NCBI RefSeq assembly: GCF_003018255.1
Contig: NZ_CP027440.1
Reading direction: 5' to 3' (one strand)
Origin: Escherichia coli
Lineage (GTDB): Bacteria > Pseudomonadota > Gammaproteobacteria > Enterobacterales > Enterobacteriaceae
Length of the DNA stretch: 64,000 bases
A program made the translations under genes and the position numbers. Below are positions 29,921 to 60,758 of the stretch, piece by piece. Each line of letters starts with the position of its first letter. Position 1 is the first letter of the stretch. Under the pieces are notes generated by a model. The model made no database searches, was not told where the DNA came from, and saw only the letters and a list, made by a program, of their open reading frames with translations.

Positions 29921-30829
29921 TTAGCCGGGAAACGTCTGGCGGCGCTGTTGGCTAAGTTTGCGGTATTGTTGCGGTGACATGCCGACATATTTGCCGAACG
30001 TGCTGTAAAAACGGCTACTCGAACGAAAGCCTGCCGTCAGGGCAATATCGAGAATACTTTTATCGGTATCGCTCAGTAACGCGCGAACGTGGTTGATGCG
30101 CATCGCGGTAATGTACTGTTTCATCGTCAATTGCATGACCCGCTGGAATATCCCCATTGCATAGTTGGCGTTAAGTTTGACGTGCTCAGCCACATCGTTG
30201 ATGGTCAGTGCCTGATCATAGTTTTCGGCAATAAAGCCCAGCATCTGGCTGACATAAAATTGCGCATGGCGCGAGACGCTGTTTTTGTGTGTGCGCGAGG
30301 TTTTATTGACCAGAATCGGTTCCCAGCCAGAGAGGCTAAATCGCTTGAGCATCAGGCCAATTTCATCAATGGCGAGCTGGCGAATTTGCTCGTTCGGACT
30401 GTTCAATTCCTGCTGCCAGCGGCGCACTTCAAACGGGCTAAGTTGCTGTGTCGCCAGTGATTTGATCACCATGCCGTGAGTAACGTGGTTAATCAGGTCT
30501 TTATCCAGCGGCCAGGAGAGAAACAGATGCATCGGCAGATTAAAAATCGCCATGCTCTGACAGGTTCCGGTATCTGTTAGTTGGTGCGGTGTACAGGCCC
30601 AGAACAGCGTGATATGACCCTGATTGATATTCACTTTTTCATTGTTGATCAGGTATTCCACATCGCCATCGAAAGGCACATTCACTTCGACCTGACCATG
30701 CCAGTGGCTGGTGGGCATGATATGCGGTGCGCGAAACTCAATCTCCATCCGCTGGTATTCCGAATACAGCGACAGCGGGCTGCGGGTCTGTTTTTCGTCG
30801 CTGCTGCACATAAACGTATCTGTATTCAT
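29921..30829 (-). CDS. melR: AraC-family melibiose operon regulator
   Basis: 302-aa ORF, C-terminal AraC HTH; divergent from melA. Confidence 0.9.
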   Translation of the reverse strand: MNTDTFMCSSDEKQTRSPLSLYSEYQRMEIEFRAPHIMPTSHWHGQVEVNVPFDGDVEYLINNEKVNINQGHITLFWACTPHQLTDTGTCQSMAIFNLPMHLFLSWPLDKDLINHVTHGMVIKSLATQQLSPFEVRRWQQELNSPNEQIRQLAIDEIGLMLKRFSLSGWEPILVNKTSRTHKNSVSRHAQFYVSQMLGFIAENYDQALTINDVAEHVKLNANYAMGIFQRVMQLTMKQYITAMRINHVRALLSDTDKSILDIALTAGFRSSSRFYSTFGKYVGMSPQQYRKLSQQRRQTFPG

Positions 30830-31111: not shown

Positions 31112-32164
31112 ATGATGTCTGCACCCAAAATTACATTTATCGGCGCTGGTTCGACGATTTTCGTTAAAAATATTCTTGGTGATGTGTTCCATCGCGAGGC
31201 GCTGAAAACGGCGCATATTGCCCTGATGGACATTGATCCCACCCGCCTGGAAGAGTCGCATATTGTGGTGCGCAAGCTGATGGATTCAGCAGGGGCCAGC
31301 GGCAAAATCACCTGCCACACCCAACAGAAAGAAGCCTTACAGGATGCCGATTTTGTCGTGGTGGCATTTCAGATTGGCGGTTATGAACCTTGCACGGTGA
31401 CTGATTTCGAGGTCTGTAAGCGGCATGGTCTGGAACAAACCATTGCCGATACGTTGGGGCCGGGCGGTATTATGCGCGCGCTACGTACCATTCCGCATCT
31501 GTGGCAAATTTGCGAGGACATGACGGAAGTCTGCCCCGATGCCACCATGCTCAACTACGTTAACCCAATGGCGATGAATACCTGGGCGATGTATGCCCGC
31601 TATCCGCATATCAAACAGGTAGGGCTGTGCCATTCGGTGCAGGGAACGGCGGAAGAGCTGGCGCGTGACCTCAATATCGACCCGGCTACGCTGCGTTACC
31701 GTTGCGCAGGTATCAACCATATGGCGTTTTACCTGGAACTGGAGCGCAAAACCGCCGACGGCAGTTACGTGAATCTCTACCCGGAACTGCTGGCGGTTTA
31801 TGAAGCAGGGCAGGCACCGAAGCCGAATATTCATGGCAATACTCGCTGCCAGAATATTGTGCGCTACGAAATGTTCAAAAAGCTGGGCTACTTCGTCACG
31901 GAATCGTCAGAACATTTTGCTGAGTACACGCCGTGGTTTATTAAGCCAGGTCGTGAGGATTTGATTGAGCGTTATAAAGTACCGCTGGATGAGTACCCGA
32001 AACGCTGCGTCGAGCAGCTGGCGAACTGGCATAAAGAGCTGGAGGAGTATAAGAACGCCTCCCGGATTGATATTAAACCGTCACGGGAATATGCCAGCAC
32101 AATCATGAACGCTATCTGGACTGGCGAGCCGAGTGTGATTTACGGCAACGTCCGTAACGTATAG
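31112..32164 (+). pseudogene. melA: alpha-galactosidase, 5' fragment (about 349 codons) truncated by prophage insertion
   Basis: GH4 N-terminus MMSAPKITFIGAGS; the frame ends ...IYGNVRNV* exactly where prophage-end sequence begins; full-length MelA is recalled as about 451 aa. Confidence 0.8.
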
Positions 32165-32260
32165 CGCGGCGATTTTTTTGATACCGATTTGCATTTCATT
32201 TGATACCGCTGAAAAACGCCGATACGCAACTTATTTGATACTAAATCGGCGCTTTTCTTT
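32165..32260. repeat. prophage right-end terminal region with three direct TTTGATAC(C/T) repeats; candidate transposase-binding sites
   Basis: Repeats at 32177, 32199 and 32234 plus a GAAAAACGC motif, immediately inside the melA junction. Confidence 0.45.
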
Positions 32261-32287
32261 TGAGTTTTAGAATGAGTTTTTAAGCGC

Positions 32288-33025
32288 TCATTCACTCTCT
32301 TTCAAACCAGTTTTAACTGTTTGTGGTTTTGGGTAAGGCTGGACTTTGAATAGCTTTGTGTTGAGGCGTTTTCTGGCCCTCTTGTTCAGAAACCGGATGT
32401 AACGAAACTGTCGGAACTTATGCACACTGGCTCTGTCGATATTAGCCCTCAGATGTTCACCTCGTTGTCCGCCTCGTTTAATGGCACTCCTGCAAATCTC
32501 GTGATACCACTCGCCATCAAGTTCATAGAATGTTGATTCATGGCTGCCTACATAATCAAAATTGCTTGCCTGATACACGACACCAAGACAGCCACAACGC
32601 TCATCTGCAAACGACTGAACCCACTGTACCTGCGGATAAAGCTGCCTGATTAGCTTGAGCGCGTAACTGATTGCCCTTGATTCGGAGTTTCTCGGCATAC
32701 AGTCATGCATCCATAGCCGGTTAAGCTCCATATATTCTCGGTTCTGCGTACCCGTTACGACGCGTGCACCACTGTTTGGGTTAAGGGCGTAACCCCATTG
32801 CATTACGCCAACAAGTTCCCGTTCTGAAAATATACCCAGATGAAGGTAGGAATTATTTACGAAACGGTGGCTGTAATGTTTATTGACGATAACCAGTCTG
32901 GCCAGCCAGCAACTTATTGTCTCAACCCGCAACTCACGGGAGCCATAACCAACGATATTGTCGTTATAGCGAATAAGTTCAGGCGTGCTGATGATACGGG
33001 ATGTGACTTGCTTTCTGTTCCCCAC
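32288..33025 (-). CDS. mom: Mom-like DNA modification (adenine carbamoylmethylation) protein
   Basis: 245-aa ORF overlapping the 3' end of a com-like gene, last gene before the prophage end as in Mu; true start probably internal. Confidence 0.6.
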
Positions 33026-33179
33026 GACAGGATTTCCTTGTGTATGTGGGGTGCTCTGTGGCGCTCGGAGATGTGATTTGATTGAGGGTTTTACAGCGCG
33101 GACATTTTACTTCCAGATAACTGAAACTGGCCCGTGCCAGTAGCTTATTGCAGTGTCGGCACCGTATGTTTCGATACAT
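32979..33179 (-). CDS. com: Com-like zinc-finger translational activator of mom
   Basis: [14 protein letters not shown]...EVKCPRCKT... aligns with Mu Com (IRCKNCNKLL...IRCPRCK) from memory; overlaps the mom start. Confidence 0.7.
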
Positions 33180-33585
33180 GGCCGCATAACCTCCTGCTTT
33201 GTTGTTGATGCCTTTCTCATGCAATCGATCGACAAAAACGATCGATTCGATTTGTTTAATTGATACAACAAATAGATTTAAAAGTCATCAACAATGATTC
33301 AGGGCGGTGATTATTTACTTAAAGAAACGAAGAGTTAGGTGGTGAAAACGATCATAAAATGATCATTTTATTGACTTTTTATACAGTGAAGGTAGGATCG
33401 CGCGTATATGTAGTATGTTTCAAATCAACAGGATACTACATAAAAGGGAAACCCAGCATAGCTGGAACTATGCTGGGTCAATCTGTAAAAACTTGCATCA
33501 ATGCTTTACTTCGAGCTCGTGGCGTATCCTATGATATTCCCCGGTCTCCTGTAAAGCAGAGATGCATAAAAAGGAGATCTTTATC
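33180..33585. promoter_or_regulatory. AT-rich divergent control region upstream of com-mom with five GATC sites (33227, 33240, 33350, 33361, 33396)
   Basis: GATC density well above the roughly 1 per 256 bp expected by chance; position matches the methylation-sensitive region upstream of mom in Mu. Confidence 0.45.
33452..33477 (-). terminator. 10-bp-stem hairpin followed on the minus strand by a T-rich run
   Basis: cccagcatag ctggaa ctatgctggg; minus-strand downstream sequence tttcccttttta. Confidence 0.45.
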
Positions 33586-33756
33586 ATGGATAAAGAGCCT
33601 GTTTGCCCTGCCTGTAAGACTCCCTTACAGCTCATCTATCGCCGTTCTCGATCTCAAAATGGCAAGACATACAAACCAAAAAATGCTTCCTGTTTCAGGA
33701 TGCTGATATGTCCTGCCTGTTCTCCCCGGAGGGAAAATACACAAAACGTGCATTAA
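33586..33756 (+). CDS. small zinc-ribbon protein (CPAC...CPAC), the only plus-strand gene in the prophage part
   Basis: ATG 33586 preceded by AAGGAG at 33571-33576; MDKEPVCPACKTPL...MLICPACSP; ORF track 33562..33756. Confidence 0.45.
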   Translation: MDKEPVCPACKTPLQLIYRRSRSQNGKTYKPKNASCFRMLICPACSPRRENTQNVH

Positions 33757-33794
33757 CAAATTCACCCGGCAGGGAAACCTGCCGGTCGGTATTG

Positions 33795-34040
33795 TTACAT
33801 CATAGTACCGTCAGTTCCGGGTTGAACCGGCTCTGGTTGCTCTACGGGTTGAGGCTCATTTTCCGTGCTGTTTTCAGCCGGAGAACGACCAACCATTCGG
33901 GCCAGCACTTCATCAACATATGCGTCGATTTGTGCCTCAAAATCCTTGCGAACCTGCGCCTTCAGCACGCGGTTCACTTCTTCAGAATAAAGTGCCTGTT
34001 TGACAAGCTCTTCAGTAACCGTGCCTTTAATCTCTGGCAT
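33795..34040 (-). CDS. hypothetical acidic 81-aa protein
   Basis: ORF with AGGAG RBS upstream of ATG; no recognisable motif. Confidence 0.45.
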   Translation of the reverse strand: MPEIKGTVTEELVKQALYSEEVNRVLKAQVRKDFEAQIDAYVDEVLARMVGRSPAENSTENEPQPVEQPEPVQPGTDGTMM

Positions 34041-34075
34041 GAATATTCTCCTTTCCTTTTCTGGTTCACAAAAAA

Positions 34076-34255
34076 TTAAATCTGACCGGAGTCTTTCGGC
34101 TGCGGCATTACAGCACCGCTTTTTATCTTTTCCTCGGCAGCTGCATCAATTTTATTTCGAAAATAATTGCGAATAATTTTATAACCACCGCTGACAAGCA
34201 ACAGACAACAAACCACCGTGCAGAAATACAGCAGGCAGACGTTTATATATGTCAT
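34076..34255 (-). CDS. hypothetical 59-aa single-pass membrane protein
   Basis: MTYINVCLLYFCTVVCCLLLVSGGYKIIRNYF... read from the minus strand, GAGG RBS; below the ORF-track length cutoff. Confidence 0.4.
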   Translation of the reverse strand: MTYINVCLLYFCTVVCCLLLVSGGYKIIRNYFRNKIDAAAEEKIKSGAVMPQPKDSGQI

Positions 34256-34312
34256 ATAAGCCTCACTCTTATTAACTGATGTTACAGCCGGATAAATTCC
34301 CGGCCGTCACGA

Positions 34313-36361
34313 TTATGCCGCAGGGGTATTAACCTCAAGGACAACGCTCTCAAAAGACACGCCATAAGTTGCCCCTTTGGTGACATCTGTCAGTGTCAGC
34401 GTATCTTTGGCAGGGGAAAGTGCATCTTTCACCATCTGGAATGCCTGGCCCGGAGTGCCATCCAGCACAGGCGTTACCTGGGCACTTCCCGCCGTAAACT
34501 TCAGGACAAGTGTATGCCACTGGTTATTGTAGGCTCCAAATGATCCCAGTTTCGTATTCCCCCCTGTTTTATGGTGCATCAGATTTAACTGGCCGCCTGT
34601 TGTCTGGAGATAATACGCCATCAGGAACGGTGTGCCTGTACCACTCATGGTTACACCTTCCGGGACCGTATCGGTGTGGAGGTAAATACCCAGAGCAAAC
34701 TGGCCTTCTTTTACTTCACCTGACAGACGGAATTTACAGGTCAACTGACCACCATGCTTCAGAAGTTCACCGGCTGCATCAGTTCCATGGGTAAGCGTCC
34801 AGGTTTTTCCGCTTTGTTTGGATACGGTCAACGCTTTACCTTCGTCCGTCAGCTGGATTGTACCATCTGTAATTTTCCAGCCCTGAGCCGGGGCTTCTCC
34901 TGCTGATGCTTTAAGTGAAAGCAGCGTACGGAGTGACGGGGATGTCGGATGGGGGGACTCACTGCCTCCTGGCTGACTACCTGTCGGCGCTTCCGGTTTC
35001 CCACCCGGCGCGGGCTGAGGCAGGGCTTCACCATCAGGGGCCACACCGGCAATAAATGCAGAGGTCAGACCTGCATATTTAAGAATTGCTGATGCAAAAC
35101 GATCTGAGACCAGAAAACGGCGCGCCCAGGAGCTAAAATGGGTTGCCCTGGATGCTGTTGTCCAGTTGCCATCTCCCCGTGATTCCGCACCATAATACCC
35201 GGCAGAAGCGATATCCGGGTCGTGCTCCGGCAGGTTGGTCGCGGTTTTATTACCGAACTCATCGTGCATCAGTGGAACAAAGTGAATGTTCTCGGAAGCC
35301 CGGTTTTTATATCCGCTATAAATGGTTTCATATGCCGCCGGGTTCTTCTCTTTCCAGTCATAGGTTGTGTCACCACATAACCACGGCACACTGTCTGATG
35401 AACCACCAATACACTGACCGGAGAAAGCACCAAGATCCGCACGGAATTTTTTCACCATCGCAGTAAACTGGGCACCATGCTGGGCCGGGGTCGCTTTAAG
35501 GTCTCCTTCCCCCTGAATCCATACGACAGATAACAGCACATTCTTTGGATTCGCCTCAAGTGCCGCTTTAGTTCGACTGACAAGATCCTGATACAGTGGG
35601 GTATCCACTCCCCAGCGTAGTGACGCCTCGGCTGCACCACTTGCCGGATCGAATGAGCCAACTGCGCCGGTTGTAAAAGCAGAGCCGCCACGGGCACAGG
35701 GAACCAGTAAAATCCCGGCATCAGCAGGAATCACCGGTAATACTTTTTTCGCAATATGAAGTCCCTGCCCCACACAACCATACTGCCCTTTTTTCAGGTC
35801 TGCTTTTGGATGGTTCAGCAGACTCATATTCTGAACATCATGAAGGCAGTGATCTGCTGGAATGATTTCATTGTATTTGCAGGGAATACCTCCGGGGGTT
35901 TGTGTATTCCTGCGTGCCAGCTGCATAATACGTGGATCAGGACGATCATAAGAATCCGGAAGGGGCAACCCTTCACCATAAGATGAAGCATTGGACTGGC
36001 CGGCTATAACAATCACGTAATACCAGGAAGGGGAGCTGGAAGCAGTTTCATTTCCTGACGGACGGGTATGTGTTTCAGCATTATCCCAGTCTGACGGTTC
36101 AGCAGTACCGGCAACATCAGCACTTAACGGAATGACCGCACCAATACCCGCTCCGGTAATTTCCACACTCGGATCACCGGATACTGGCCTTACCCACAGG
36201 CAATCCCGTGTATTAAAACTGATGAGACAGTCAGCAAATGTCATTCCTCCTTTTGTTTCGGCCGGAGGAAAGGGAGCCTCAAGAAATGCCGCTGTACCAC
36301 CGGAAACTTTAACAGTAAAGTTTCCGGGCATTGATGATAGTTGAACCCATTTGGACGTCAT
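34313..36361 (-). CDS. SGNH/SASA-type sialate O-acetylesterase-like protein with C-terminal beta-rich putative carbohydrate-binding domain (resembles prophage NanS-p family)
   Basis: 682-aa ORF; IAGQSNASSYG esterase signature, Pro-rich linker, about 200-aa C-terminal domain; no signal peptide. Confidence 0.55.
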   Translation of the reverse strand: MTSKWVQLSSMPGNFTVKVSGGTAAFLEAPFPPAETKGGMTFADCLISFNTRDCLWVRPVSGDPSVEITGAGIGAVIPLSADVAGTAEPSDWDNAETHTRPSGNETASSSPSWYYVIVIAGQSNASSYGEGLPLPDSYDRPDPRIMQLARRNTQTPGGIPCKYNEIIPADHCLHDVQNMSLLNHPKADLKKGQYGCVGQGLHIAKKVLPVIPADAGILLVPCARGGSAFTTGAVGSFDPASGAAEASLRWGVDTPLYQDLVSRTKAALEANPKNVLLSVVWIQGEGDLKATPAQHGAQFTAMVKKFRADLGAFSGQCIGGSSDSVPWLCGDTTYDWKEKNPAAYETIYSGYKNRASENIHFVPLMHDEFGNKTATNLPEHDPDIASAGYYGAESRGDGNWTTASRATHFSSWARRFLVSDRFASAILKYAGLTSAFIAGVAPDGEALPQPAPGGKPEAPTGSQPGGSESPHPTSPSLRTLLSLKASAGEAPAQGWKITDGTIQLTDEGKALTVSKQSGKTWTLTHGTDAAGELLKHGGQLTCKFRLSGEVKEGQFALGIYLHTDTVPEGVTMSGTGTPFLMAYYLQTTGGQLNLMHHKTGGNTKLGSFGAYNNQWHTLVLKFTAGSAQVTPVLDGTPGQAFQMVKDALSPAKDTLTLTDVTKGATYGVSFESVVLEVNTPAA

Positions 36362-36460: not shown

Positions 36461-37021
36461 TTATTTTTCCGAAACGCTCGCAGGATAATAACGATAAAGG
36501 GTTGAAAGACCGATATCAAAAATAAGTGCCACCTGTCTTCGACTGACACCCCCGGCCAGTAAACGCCCGACCTGCTCGTATTGTTCCTGCGTGAGACGGC
36601 GGGGTCTGCCGCCGGTTCGTCCCCTTTCACGGGCAGCTGCAAGACCAGCCCGTGTCCGTTCGACAATTAATTCACGCTCCATTTCTGCCAGCGCACCCAT
36701 TATGTGAAAAAAGAAACGCCCCATGGGGGTTGACGTATCAATGTTGTCAGTAAGACTACGAAAATTTATCCCCTGTTGCTGTAATTCATCTGTCAGCGCA
36801 ACAAGGTGGCGCATACTGCGCCCCAGCCTGTCCAGTTTCCAGACCATCAGTGTGTCACCGGGTTTTAGTTTCTTCAGTGCCCGCTTCAGTCCCGGCCGCT
36901 GTGTCGTTTTACCACTCATTTTGTCTTCAAAAATCTGCTCACATCCTGCACATTCCAGCGCATTTCTTTGTAAACCGGTGTTCTGGTCATTTGTTGATAC
37001 GCGTATATAGCCAATCAGCAT
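36461..37021 (-). CDS. gin: serine DNA invertase of the Gin/Hin/Cin/Pin family
   Basis: MLIGYIRVSTNDQNTGLQRNAL...GRFFFHIMGALAEMERELI aligns closely with Mu Gin (recalled); adjacent to the invertible segment. Confidence 0.9.
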   Translation of the reverse strand: MLIGYIRVSTNDQNTGLQRNALECAGCEQIFEDKMSGKTTQRPGLKRALKKLKPGDTLMVWKLDRLGRSMRHLVALTDELQQQGINFRSLTDNIDTSTPMGRFFFHIMGALAEMERELIVERTRAGLAAARERGRTGGRPRRLTQEQYEQVGRLLAGGVSRRQVALIFDIGLSTLYRYYPASVSEK

Positions 37022-52358: not shown

Positions 52359-52534
52359 TCCGGCAGCATAGGCCGGGAATTTTCAGGGCGGGTTTTGCGG
52401 GATTTCAGGAAGTGCTTCCAGGGGAAAAATACAAAGGCGCTTCACGCAGATTTTAAAGCCCGTTAAATACAGGTTAGAAAATCACGACACGCGCCTGAAG
52501 GGGGTAAGGTAATGCATTTGCATACCTTAAACAA
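52359..52534 (-). promoter_or_regulatory. 176-bp non-coding gap upstream of the protease gene with imperfect palindrome aggtaatgcatttgcatacctt; candidate activator-dependent late promoter
   Basis: The only sizeable gap inside the otherwise tightly packed head operon. Confidence 0.3.
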
Positions 52535-60261: not shown

Positions 60262-60332
60262 TGTTACGCTGTCTCATGATGTTCTCTGAGTCAGCGTAAC
60301 GGTGAAGGAGAGGCGGCAGGCTTTGCGGAATA

Positions 60333-60758
60333 TCAGAAAAGTGGCGGTTGCGTTCTTGCCAGATGCAGACGGCGCTGTTCGCGTATGACGGTATAAATCT
60401 GGGTTTCTGACATCCGGTAATGGCGGCGAAGGGATTCAATTTTCTCGCCCCGGTCCCAGCGCGAAAATATCTCATTGTTTCGCAGCTCGGCAAAGAGAGA
60501 TTCCCCGACCGGCAGGTAATAACCCCGTCCGCCCATATAGGCTGCCTGAGCCGCAGCCACCTTGCGTGCCAGTTTACCGGCCAGTACCGGCTCAATCCCC
60601 TGACGCTGAAGTTCTGCGCCGGTGACTTCAACCAGTTCTGACAGGGTCCGCGGCCAGTTCTTTTTGAGAACATCATCAGGGATGTCATCAAGGCGGTCGA
60701 TAAGGGCGTGCAGTTGCTCACTGTCACCACCAAACATGCTCATCTGAGTTTCTGCCAT
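60333..60758 (-). CDS. Mor/C-family transcriptional activator
   Basis: C-terminal region GGRGYYLP...IYTVIREQRRL resembles Mu Mor (GGGQVYIP...VYKAIRRMRRL, recalled); immediately upstream of the lysis gene. Confidence 0.65.
   Translation of the reverse strand: MAETQMSMFGGDSEQLHALIDRLDDIPDDVLKKNWPRTLSELVEVTGAELQRQGIEPVLAGKLARKVAAAQAAYMGGRGYYLPVGESLFAELRNNEIFSRWDRGEKIESLRRHYRMSETQIYTVIREQRRLHLARTQPPLF

Follow-up and report, generated by a model that had tools for sequence, protein, structure and literature searches.

A com–mom operon with a putative Dam/OxyR operator at the right end of an Sp18-type Mu-like prophage in Escherichia coli melA

The locus described here is an ordinary com–mom operon. 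It lies at the right-hand terminus of a well-known E. coli prophage, Mu-like and of the Sp18 type, that is inserted in melA. Across the 64-kb stretch of DNA that was analysed (hereafter the window; features are collected in Table 1), the observations are best explained jointly, with a probability of about 0.78, by an Sp18-type com–mom module in which translation of mom would depend on a hairpin–Com switch and transcription on a proximal Dam/OxyR operator, with the more distal GATC sites lying outside this switch. Judged from its sequence, the GATC "cluster" upstream of com is two separate things, a proximal pair and a distal group of three, rather than one control unit. The module itself is already known, and RefSeq names its genes as Mom family and Com family proteins.

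Table 1. Coordinates of the features discussed, in window positions (a dot marks features given without a strand).
Feature	Position	Strand	Basis or remark
Prophage right end with three GTATCAAA-containing direct repeats	32160..32241	.	Repeats are putative transposase-binding sites; host melA is cut at 32159
mom, adenine methylcarbamoylation (DNA modification) enzyme, 245 aa, GTG start	32288..33025	-	Pfam, PHROG, Mu Mom alignment
com, zinc-ribbon translational activator of mom, 66 aa	32979..33179	-	Pfam, PHROG, Mu/D108 Com alignment
Predicted translation-inhibition hairpin, stem CCCCAC/GUGGGG	33020..33051	-	Folding and covariation
Small hairpin (arms GCGC and GCAC, loop CACAGA) directly 5′ of the start hairpin of mom	33051..33064	-	Position of the Com target in Mu; covariation
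Candidate com–mom core promoter (low confidence): -35 TCGATC (33227–33232), 16-nt spacer, -10 CATCAA (33205–33210), start near 33198	33205..33232	-	Inferred
Proximal GATC pair, 33227 and 33240, 13 bp apart, in palindrome AATCGATCG-N7-CGATCGATT	33223..33247	.	Proposed Dam-sensitive OxyR half-site
Overlapping OxyR tetramer consensus matches	33228..33295	.	13/20 at 33228–33264 (both GATC inside); 13, 13 and 14/20 further upstream
Three distal GATC: 33350 and 33361 as GATCAT-AAA-ATGATC inverted repeat, 33396 inside TAGGATC	33350..33399	+	Around a sigma-70-like site
Intrinsic terminator, 13-bp stem followed by T run	33450..33479	-	Ends the esterase/DUF1378/DUF826 transcript and separates it from com–mom
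Small zinc-ribbon ORF, 56 aa, CPACK...CPAC, ribosome-binding site AAGGAG	33586..33756	+	ORF list; PHROG 9584 weak, E = 0.008

With respect to genomic setting, the window contains E. coli chromosomal DNA with melR at 29921–30829 and a melA reading frame that starts at 31112 and ends at 32164. This frame matches positions 2–330 of the 432-position profile alone, which marks melA as a truncated gene. A BLAST comparison of 32100–33800 with 5,426 complete E. coli genomes recovered the same element in ~200 of them. The com–mom module is carried by ~220 complete E. coli genomes, in many of which the genes are annotated as Mom/Com. Homology to the E. coli copies (~200 genomes, at differing chromosomal sites) begins at window position 32158–32160, and the flanking genes vary from copy to copy (otsA/araF, sbmA, dcuC and others), as expected of a transposable phage. 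One near-identical annotated copy displays the Mu gene order, namely repressor, transposase, AAA ATPase, Gam, Mor/C-family activator, lysozyme, Mu-type head and tail genes, invertase, Com and Mom. In the window, the Mor/C-family protein of the phage is encoded at 60333–60758. A repeat search located the three GTATCAAA repeats within 32176–32241, and these look like right-end transposase sites. Gene order, varied insertion sites and terminal repeats together identify the element as a Mu-like transposable phage, the left end of which lies outside the window. Sp18 of O157 Sakai has been described as an intact Mu-like phage (PMC2669165). The last gene of the com–mom operon ends 128 nt from the phage right end (~32160). 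On its other side, the spacer/moron block (33280–34300) matched, in a BLAST search of phage genomes, only Mu-like insertions inside two Stx phage records.

The identity of the 245-aa reading frame as Mom could have been overturned by a profile search, and instead the product matched the Pfam Mom family (PF25680) over the full length of the model (positions 1–202 of 202, E = 9.9e-77) as well as PHROG 1384 (E = 1.2e-83). No NCBIfam model matched Mom, Com, the zinc-ribbon ORF or the esterase, so the identification rests on Pfam and PHROGs. Acetyl-CoA binding, iron binding or activity of Mu Mom depends on residues H48, Y49, R101, S114, D139 and Y149 (PMC7261163), and all six are identical in the window protein, where the alignment places them at H50, Y51, R103, S116, D141 and Y151. 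The same work numbers Mu Mom as a protein of 231 aa (PMC7261163), which implies a GTG start; the window mom frame has no in-frame ATG upstream, in agreement with a GTG start here as well. By homology, Mom would be a GNAT-fold enzyme dependent on iron and acetyl-CoA. Late in lytic growth it would modify the adenine of phage DNA to N6-methylcarbamoyl-adenine, and this modification is expected to shield the phage DNA from restriction.

The com gene lies directly upstream of mom and overlaps it by 47 nt (32979–33025). A preliminary description of this DNA had pictured a Com-like zinc finger overlapping the start of a Mom-like ORF at a prophage end, and each element of that picture is present: both reading frames, the overlap and the right end near 32160. 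The Com protein contains the motif CPRCK and matches Pfam Zn_ribbon_Com (PF10122, E = 2.2e-12) together with the gpCom families PHROG 13819 and 6417. Alignment with the Mu proteins, proposed at the same early stage, gave pairwise identities of 79% for Mom and 46% for Com, the latter value applying to both Mu and D108 Com. In Mu Com the zinc-binding cysteines are C6, C9, C26 and C29. Aligned with the Com proteins of Mu and D108, the window protein keeps all four zinc cysteines, as C7, C10, C26 and C29. Translation of com is served by a ribosome-binding site, GGAGG, at 33190–33194. A leaderless com transcript starting from the TATGCG hexamer at 33183–33188 was considered and rejected, as this hexamer is only 4 nt from the ATG, is preceded by the strong GGAGG and is missing in sister lineages.

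In 10 genomes, the same com and hairpin stand ahead of another modification gene, encoding a Dcm-type methyltransferase. These sister E. coli prophages, with com followed by the methyltransferase, share the cassette logic of a known system in which a DNA-modification gene at the mom position is preceded by a Com homolog. The window itself has a true Mom.

In terms of translational control, a stem-loop prediction at the mom start had been suggested earlier, and folding indeed returned a CCCCAC/GUGGGG hairpin with the mom ribosome-binding site AAGGA (33035–33039) in its loop and the GUG start (33023–33025) in its 3′ arm. Folding predicts this start hairpin not only in the window but also in Mu, HH35 and AST198. 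From 80 related loci gathered from viral contigs, 14 distinct versions of the mom-start region were aligned. All cells of the start hairpin (100%) are paired across these 14 lineages, the outer pair being C-G in seven and U-A in the other seven, and its loop ranges from 11 to 20 nt in length. The small hairpin shows compensatory changes at all four of its base pairs, with 92.9% of cells paired over the same lineages; the window copy carries one C·A mismatch. Column 18 of the alignment is able to pair in either hairpin, a property that suits a switch. Folding of the whole segment yielded a stability no greater than that of shuffled sequence (z = -0.28), and an Rfam scan of 32100–34300 at a permissive threshold returned two chance-level matches and no known RNA family.

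In Mu, Com reportedly binds beside the inhibitory hairpin and frees the mom start, a mechanism associated with the work of Hattman in 1999 and of Wulczyn and Kahmann. By analogy, the RNA arrangement in the window is that of Mu, with its structure shown by covariation and the binding of Com carried over from the Mu system. The presence of both hairpins and their covariation across the 14 lineages uphold the Mu-type arrangement for Com-activated translation that had been anticipated for this locus. The mom ribosome-binding site and GUG start would be locked in the CCCCAC/GUGGGG hairpin, and Com, translated from the same mRNA, would bind the small upstream hairpin and open the mom start, as in Mu.

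With respect to transcriptional control, five GATC sites do lie within 175 bp upstream, starting at 33227, 33240, 33350, 33361 and 33396, exactly as the preliminary description had placed them. The window contains 245 GATC (one per 261 bp), and under a Poisson model the probability of five in any given 175-bp stretch is 6.5e-4. The same density, at least five GATC per 175 bp, is nevertheless reached in four further stretches of the window, all in host DNA, so that GATC density alone is weak evidence. Methylation-sensitive control had been proposed for the cluster as a whole; this idea is plausible for 33227/33240 in view of the Mu alignment and the OxyR-consensus matches, but it finds no support for 33350/33361/33396, in whose place HH35 and AST198 have unrelated sequence.

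The counterparts of the proximal pair in the Mu alignment are GATC sites 2 and 3 of Mu, which are also 13 bp apart, in the Mu sequence AATCGATCGGTAATACAGATCGATT. Among 12 distinct equal-length variants of the Sp18 clade, a 21-nt GATC core is invariant, and the 14 nt just downstream of it vary in sequence at a fixed length. More broadly, 44 of the 46 distinct com-upstream regions of Mu-like phages contain two or more GATC within 140 nt at spacings of 13 and/or 18 bp, and a 13-bp-spaced pair is found in 30 of the 46. It is this conservation that sets the proximal pair apart from a chance occurrence.

In Mu, OxyR binds the three-GATC region only when it is unmethylated and represses the mom promoter (PMC3378877), and control of mom by Dam and OxyR has been described elsewhere as well (PMC2909390). 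Both strands of the whole 64-kb window were scored against the OxyR tetramer consensus (20 specified positions), a bare consensus that favours AT-rich DNA. Eight of the ten best positions (13–14/20) fall in 33228–33295, and the validated OxyR site of Mu itself reaches 13/20 under the same scoring. When the local 121 nt was subjected to 3000 dinucleotide-preserving shuffles, the maximum score had a P of ~0.003, and the number of high-scoring positions was attained by none of the shuffles. A second half-site-like sequence is located 22 bp upstream of the GATC-bearing half-site. Methylation-sensitive control is, at the level of sequence, well supported by homology for these two of the five GATC sites. 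The two proximal GATC would constitute one half-site of an OxyR tetramer site; without Dam methylation of these sites OxyR would bind and block transcription, and full methylation would prevent binding. A 23-nt inverted repeat flanking the operator (33193–33215 and 33281–33303) was also considered as an RNA fold that would mask the ribosome-binding site of com and was set aside, as its arms are poorly matched in sister variants.

The alternative that survives best is that the distal GATC density is due to chance and has no function, and that the proximal palindrome amounts to no more than a weak terminator-like hairpin on the plus strand, an account that we regard as credible in part and yet somewhat doubtful. 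The four equally dense stretches elsewhere in the window are in keeping with it, as is the flagging of the proximal palindrome as a plus-strand terminator-like hairpin; moreover, GATC and ATCGAT are self-complementary, such that any pair will give a hairpin. For the proximal pair only, this explanation runs against the homology to the Mu operator, the GATC pairs upstream of com in 44 of 46 lineages, the invariant core beside a variable patch, and an OxyR-motif enrichment that is significant relative to shuffles.

The promoter that a proximal Dam/OxyR operator would control is less sharply defined. A consensus scan found no minus-strand sigma-70 promoter between the terminator and com, and the hexamers of the low-confidence candidate in Table 1 each match the consensus at 3 of 6 positions. 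In sister variants, the -10 position reads TATCAA or TATCAT, and the stretch from the GATC pair to this hexamer keeps its length while its sequence varies. Related clades in which Com begins MPHNVRC or MHHDVRC have a good TATACT or TATAGT hexamer directly after the GATC pair. With regard to the late activator, the C-like protein of this phage is 39% identical to Mu C, and its lys and I late promoters share CTGA.AT.CCGCAAA.CC (TCCCGCAAA.CC), 38 nt upstream of TAYGCT. When the motif derived from lys and I was scanned over the prophage for activator C sites, only the lys and I sites matched, with none upstream of com; dependence of com–mom on the C-like activator is therefore unproven. Most likely, the operator overlaps the -35 and spacer of the com–mom promoter and is not placed, as in Mu, upstream of a site for activator C, in which case bound OxyR would cover the promoter itself.

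The three distal sites lie 110–170 nt further upstream than the proximal pair. The segment that contains them is conserved only within the 96–100% identical Sp18 lineage, and unrelated sequence occupies this place in the sister prophages HH35 and AST198. A plus-strand promoter-like element, TTGACT-16-TAGGAT at 33371–33398, is flanked by the distal GATC and faces the zinc-ribbon ORF. The terminator beyond it is retained, with an altered stem sequence, in variant 2013C-4081. These distal GATC would belong to a lineage-specific spacer carrying the promoter-like element that faces the zinc-ribbon gene, and would stand outside the mom switch. With respect to that gene, a 154-aa divergent "hypothetical protein" annotated in some O157 genomes, of which the window version is called "frameshifted" in RefSeq, was examined and rejected, as it arises from two 1-nt indels and its N-terminal part is implausible. 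The 56-aa zinc-ribbon ORF alone is retained consistently, in contrast to the 154-aa annotated version, and it persists in the lineage variants whatever the upstream frame. No Pfam family matches it.

A second alternative assigns the distal GATC a role of their own, as part of a promoter for the plus-strand zinc-ribbon gene in which 33396 lies in the -10, the dyad upstream of the -35 acts as an operator, and Dam tunes that gene and not mom. We consider this unlikely. Its attraction is that 1.7 kb of sequence contains just two consensus promoter matches, of which TTGACT-16-TAGGAT is one, with a GATC overlapping its -10 and the dyad placed 10–20 nt upstream of the -35, and that the ORF has a good ribosome-binding site and is retained across variants. 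The two promoter-like matches are, however, no more than are found in shuffled sequence (mean 2.9), and the ORF begins 190 nt downstream, beyond two stable hairpins, and is without a recognised family. As for the earlier suggestion that a single region might control both com–mom and the zinc-ribbon gene, it finds no support; the two starts are 407 nt apart with a strong minus-strand terminator between them.

The last alternative, that all five GATC form one extended Dam-sensitive com–mom control region, maybe a two-site gtr-like switch with its promoter upstream of 33300, is in our view very improbable: two GATC pairs ~120 bp apart, both with dyad symmetry, loosely resemble the two-pair layout of P22 gtr, CCTGAATC at ~33300 is weakly like the start of the phage late-promoter motif at ~37 nt from a TATCAA hexamer, and the distal sites are retained across the Sp18 lineage, but the spacing of the distal pair is 11 bp where an OxyR half-site calls for 13 bp, the distal sites coincide with no OxyR-consensus match of at least 13/20, HH35 and AST198 retain com and the proximal pair with unrelated sequence in place of the distal segment, retention among copies that are 96–100% identical tells little, and the late-promoter motif is without its key core, CCGCAAA.

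Regulation of com–mom in Mu and D108 was reportedly reviewed by Hattman in 1999, and the window operon, read as an Sp18-type module with a proximal operator, resembles that system in several respects. Here too com–mom closes the right end of a transposable phage as its last operon, and the two genes overlap by a similar length (47 nt in the window, ~50 nt in Mu, with a GTG start). The tested active-site residues of Mom are conserved within its 79% identity to the Mu enzyme, the four cysteines of Com are kept, and both the Com-site hairpin and the start-codon hairpin are conserved. Upstream, the 13-bp GATC pair occurs in a homologous ATCGATCG...GATCGATT context.

Several differences from Mu are also apparent. 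Mu has three GATC spaced 18 and 13 bp, whereas the window has only the 13-bp pair; the first site of Mu, 18 bp upstream, is missing, and the next GATC upstream of the proximal pair is 110 nt away. The pair lies at -64/-51 from the com ATG in the window as compared to -91/-78 in Mu, that is, 27 nt closer, and this compressed geometry is common to the related clades with Com beginning MPHNVRC or MHHDVRC. The Mu C-binding site, T-run and TAAGAT -10 are unrecognisable in the alignment upstream of window com. In Mu, gin is directly upstream of com; window gin is at 36461–37021, and a 3-kb block intervenes that contains a NanS-like esterase (SASA and DUF6645 domains), DUF1378, DUF826, the zinc-ribbon ORF and the terminator. 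Finally, the Com proteins themselves have diverged to the 46% identity noted above. The clade-specific position of the operator is a minor variation on a known system.

In its operator, the window also resembles the Dam/OxyR epigenetic switches of E. coli agn43 and of gtr from Salmonella phage P22. In gtr, 13-bp GATC pairs lie inside single OxyR half-sites (PMC2909390). The window shares with agn43 and gtr a GATC pair exactly 13 bp apart in one OxyR dimer half-site, with a second half-site 22 bp away (predicted in the window), and an operator that probably overlaps the core promoter. The gtr start is 33 bp downstream of the last GATC, and the candidate start in the window (~33198) is ~32 bp downstream. 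Unlike gtr, the window has only one GATC-bearing half-site, which makes the two alternative methylation states of gtr impossible here. The target also differs from that of agn43 and gtr in being a lytic-phase phage gene. A stronger version of this likeness, in which the Sp18-clade mom promoter has been rewired such that the Dam/OxyR operator sits over the core promoter as in agn43/gtr and the C-activator site has been lost, strikes us as improbable. If such rewiring were true, mom transcription would be set mainly by methylation of two GATC and could be C-independent or heterogeneous from cell to cell, with additional tuning from a variable (CAA)n tract that separates the -10 hexamer from the ribosome-binding site.

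The clade-specific operator geometry provides a small natural experiment on rearrangement of the Mu mom circuit, as does the replacement of mom by a cytosine methyltransferase behind the same com/hairpin cassette. Beyond correct annotation, the locus is of little importance. As far as its sequence indicates, the module represents an apparently functional anti-restriction DNA modification system in a widespread prophage of Shiga-toxin-producing and other E. coli, and this system may broaden the range of hosts that the phage can enter.

In a small subset of E. coli genomes, the Sp18-type com gene is followed not by mom but by a gene for a Dcm-type C5 cytosine methyltransferase (TIGR00675). Out of 5,426 complete genomes of the species, 10 have this arrangement, and two examples, at loci designated L006 and L008, are included in the feature list below. 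Specifically, the CCCCAC/GUGGGG start hairpin is identical in the methyltransferase-bearing modules and the mom-bearing Sp18-type module, and the methyltransferase begins at the same GUG as mom, with the opening codons (V-G-N-K-K) common to both. From these shared elements it follows that the com and hairpin cassette has been recombined onto another DNA-modification gene. No published account of a cytosine methyltransferase in the mom position emerged from a narrow literature search.

Features of the com-mom region, related loci and candidate late promoters
Feature	Location	Strand	Details
NanS-like sialate O-acetylesterase gene	window, within 33795-36361	-	682 aa; SASA and DUF6645 domains
DUF1378 gene	window, within 33795-36361	-	
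DUF826 gene	window, within 33795-36361	-	
Stable hairpin	window, 33409-33442		9-bp stem
Stable hairpin, minus-strand terminator	window, 33450-33479	-	13-bp stem
com-methyltransferase module	L006, 3134-4340		E. coli AST198
com-methyltransferase module	L008, 1525-2731		strain 2013C-4081
Motif-bearing upstream regions, lysozyme and protease (I) genes	window, 52360-52410 and 60270-60340	-	

With respect to the com leader, the stretch from the candidate -10 hexamer to the ribosome-binding site of com includes a short (CAA)n tract (33199-33207). Its copy number differs among variants, with three repeats in the window and five in L012, another of the compared loci, and the tract may represent a length polymorphism acting on the com leader.

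Divergent to com, the RefSeq annotation places a "frameshifted hypothetical protein" at 33294-33756 (+), an intact 154-aa version of which is annotated in some O157:H7 genomes; the two forms are separated by two 1-nt indels. The N-terminal two-thirds of the 154-aa frame look non-coding, because a promoter-like site and two hairpins lie inside them, and the only part that every variant retains is the C-terminal 56-aa zinc-ribbon ORF, equipped with a ribosome-binding site of its own. The two hairpins adjoin each other and would fall at the 5' end of any plus-strand transcript begun at the promoter-like site (33371-33398). On that strand, the predicted pair could serve as a structured leader or else as a small RNA; an Rfam scan over the hairpin region gave nothing above chance level.

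Whereas the interval between the invertase gene gin (36461-37021) and com is empty in Mu, the window prophage carries a block of three inserted genes there. The same trio probably also occurs in Stx-converting lambdoid phages, within their late regions. A BLAST search of 33280-34300 against phage genomes found no DNA-level matches to other phages.

In terms of late transcription, the upstream regions of the prophage lysozyme and protease (I) genes share a 20-nt motif, CTGA.AT.CCGCAAA.CC.GCC, with TACGCT or TATGCT exactly 38 nt downstream. These are probably the binding sites and -10 hexamers for the prophage's C-like late activator, and their spacing is unlike that of Mu late-promoter sequences.

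At the host boundary, none of the top matches listed for that set of 5,426 complete genomes crosses the melA junction, so the exact insertion site was not seen among them. The prophage breaks this alpha-galactosidase gene (31112-32164), and the melA profile match in the window covers only positions 2-330 of 432. With melA interrupted in this manner, the strain should be unable to use melibiose.
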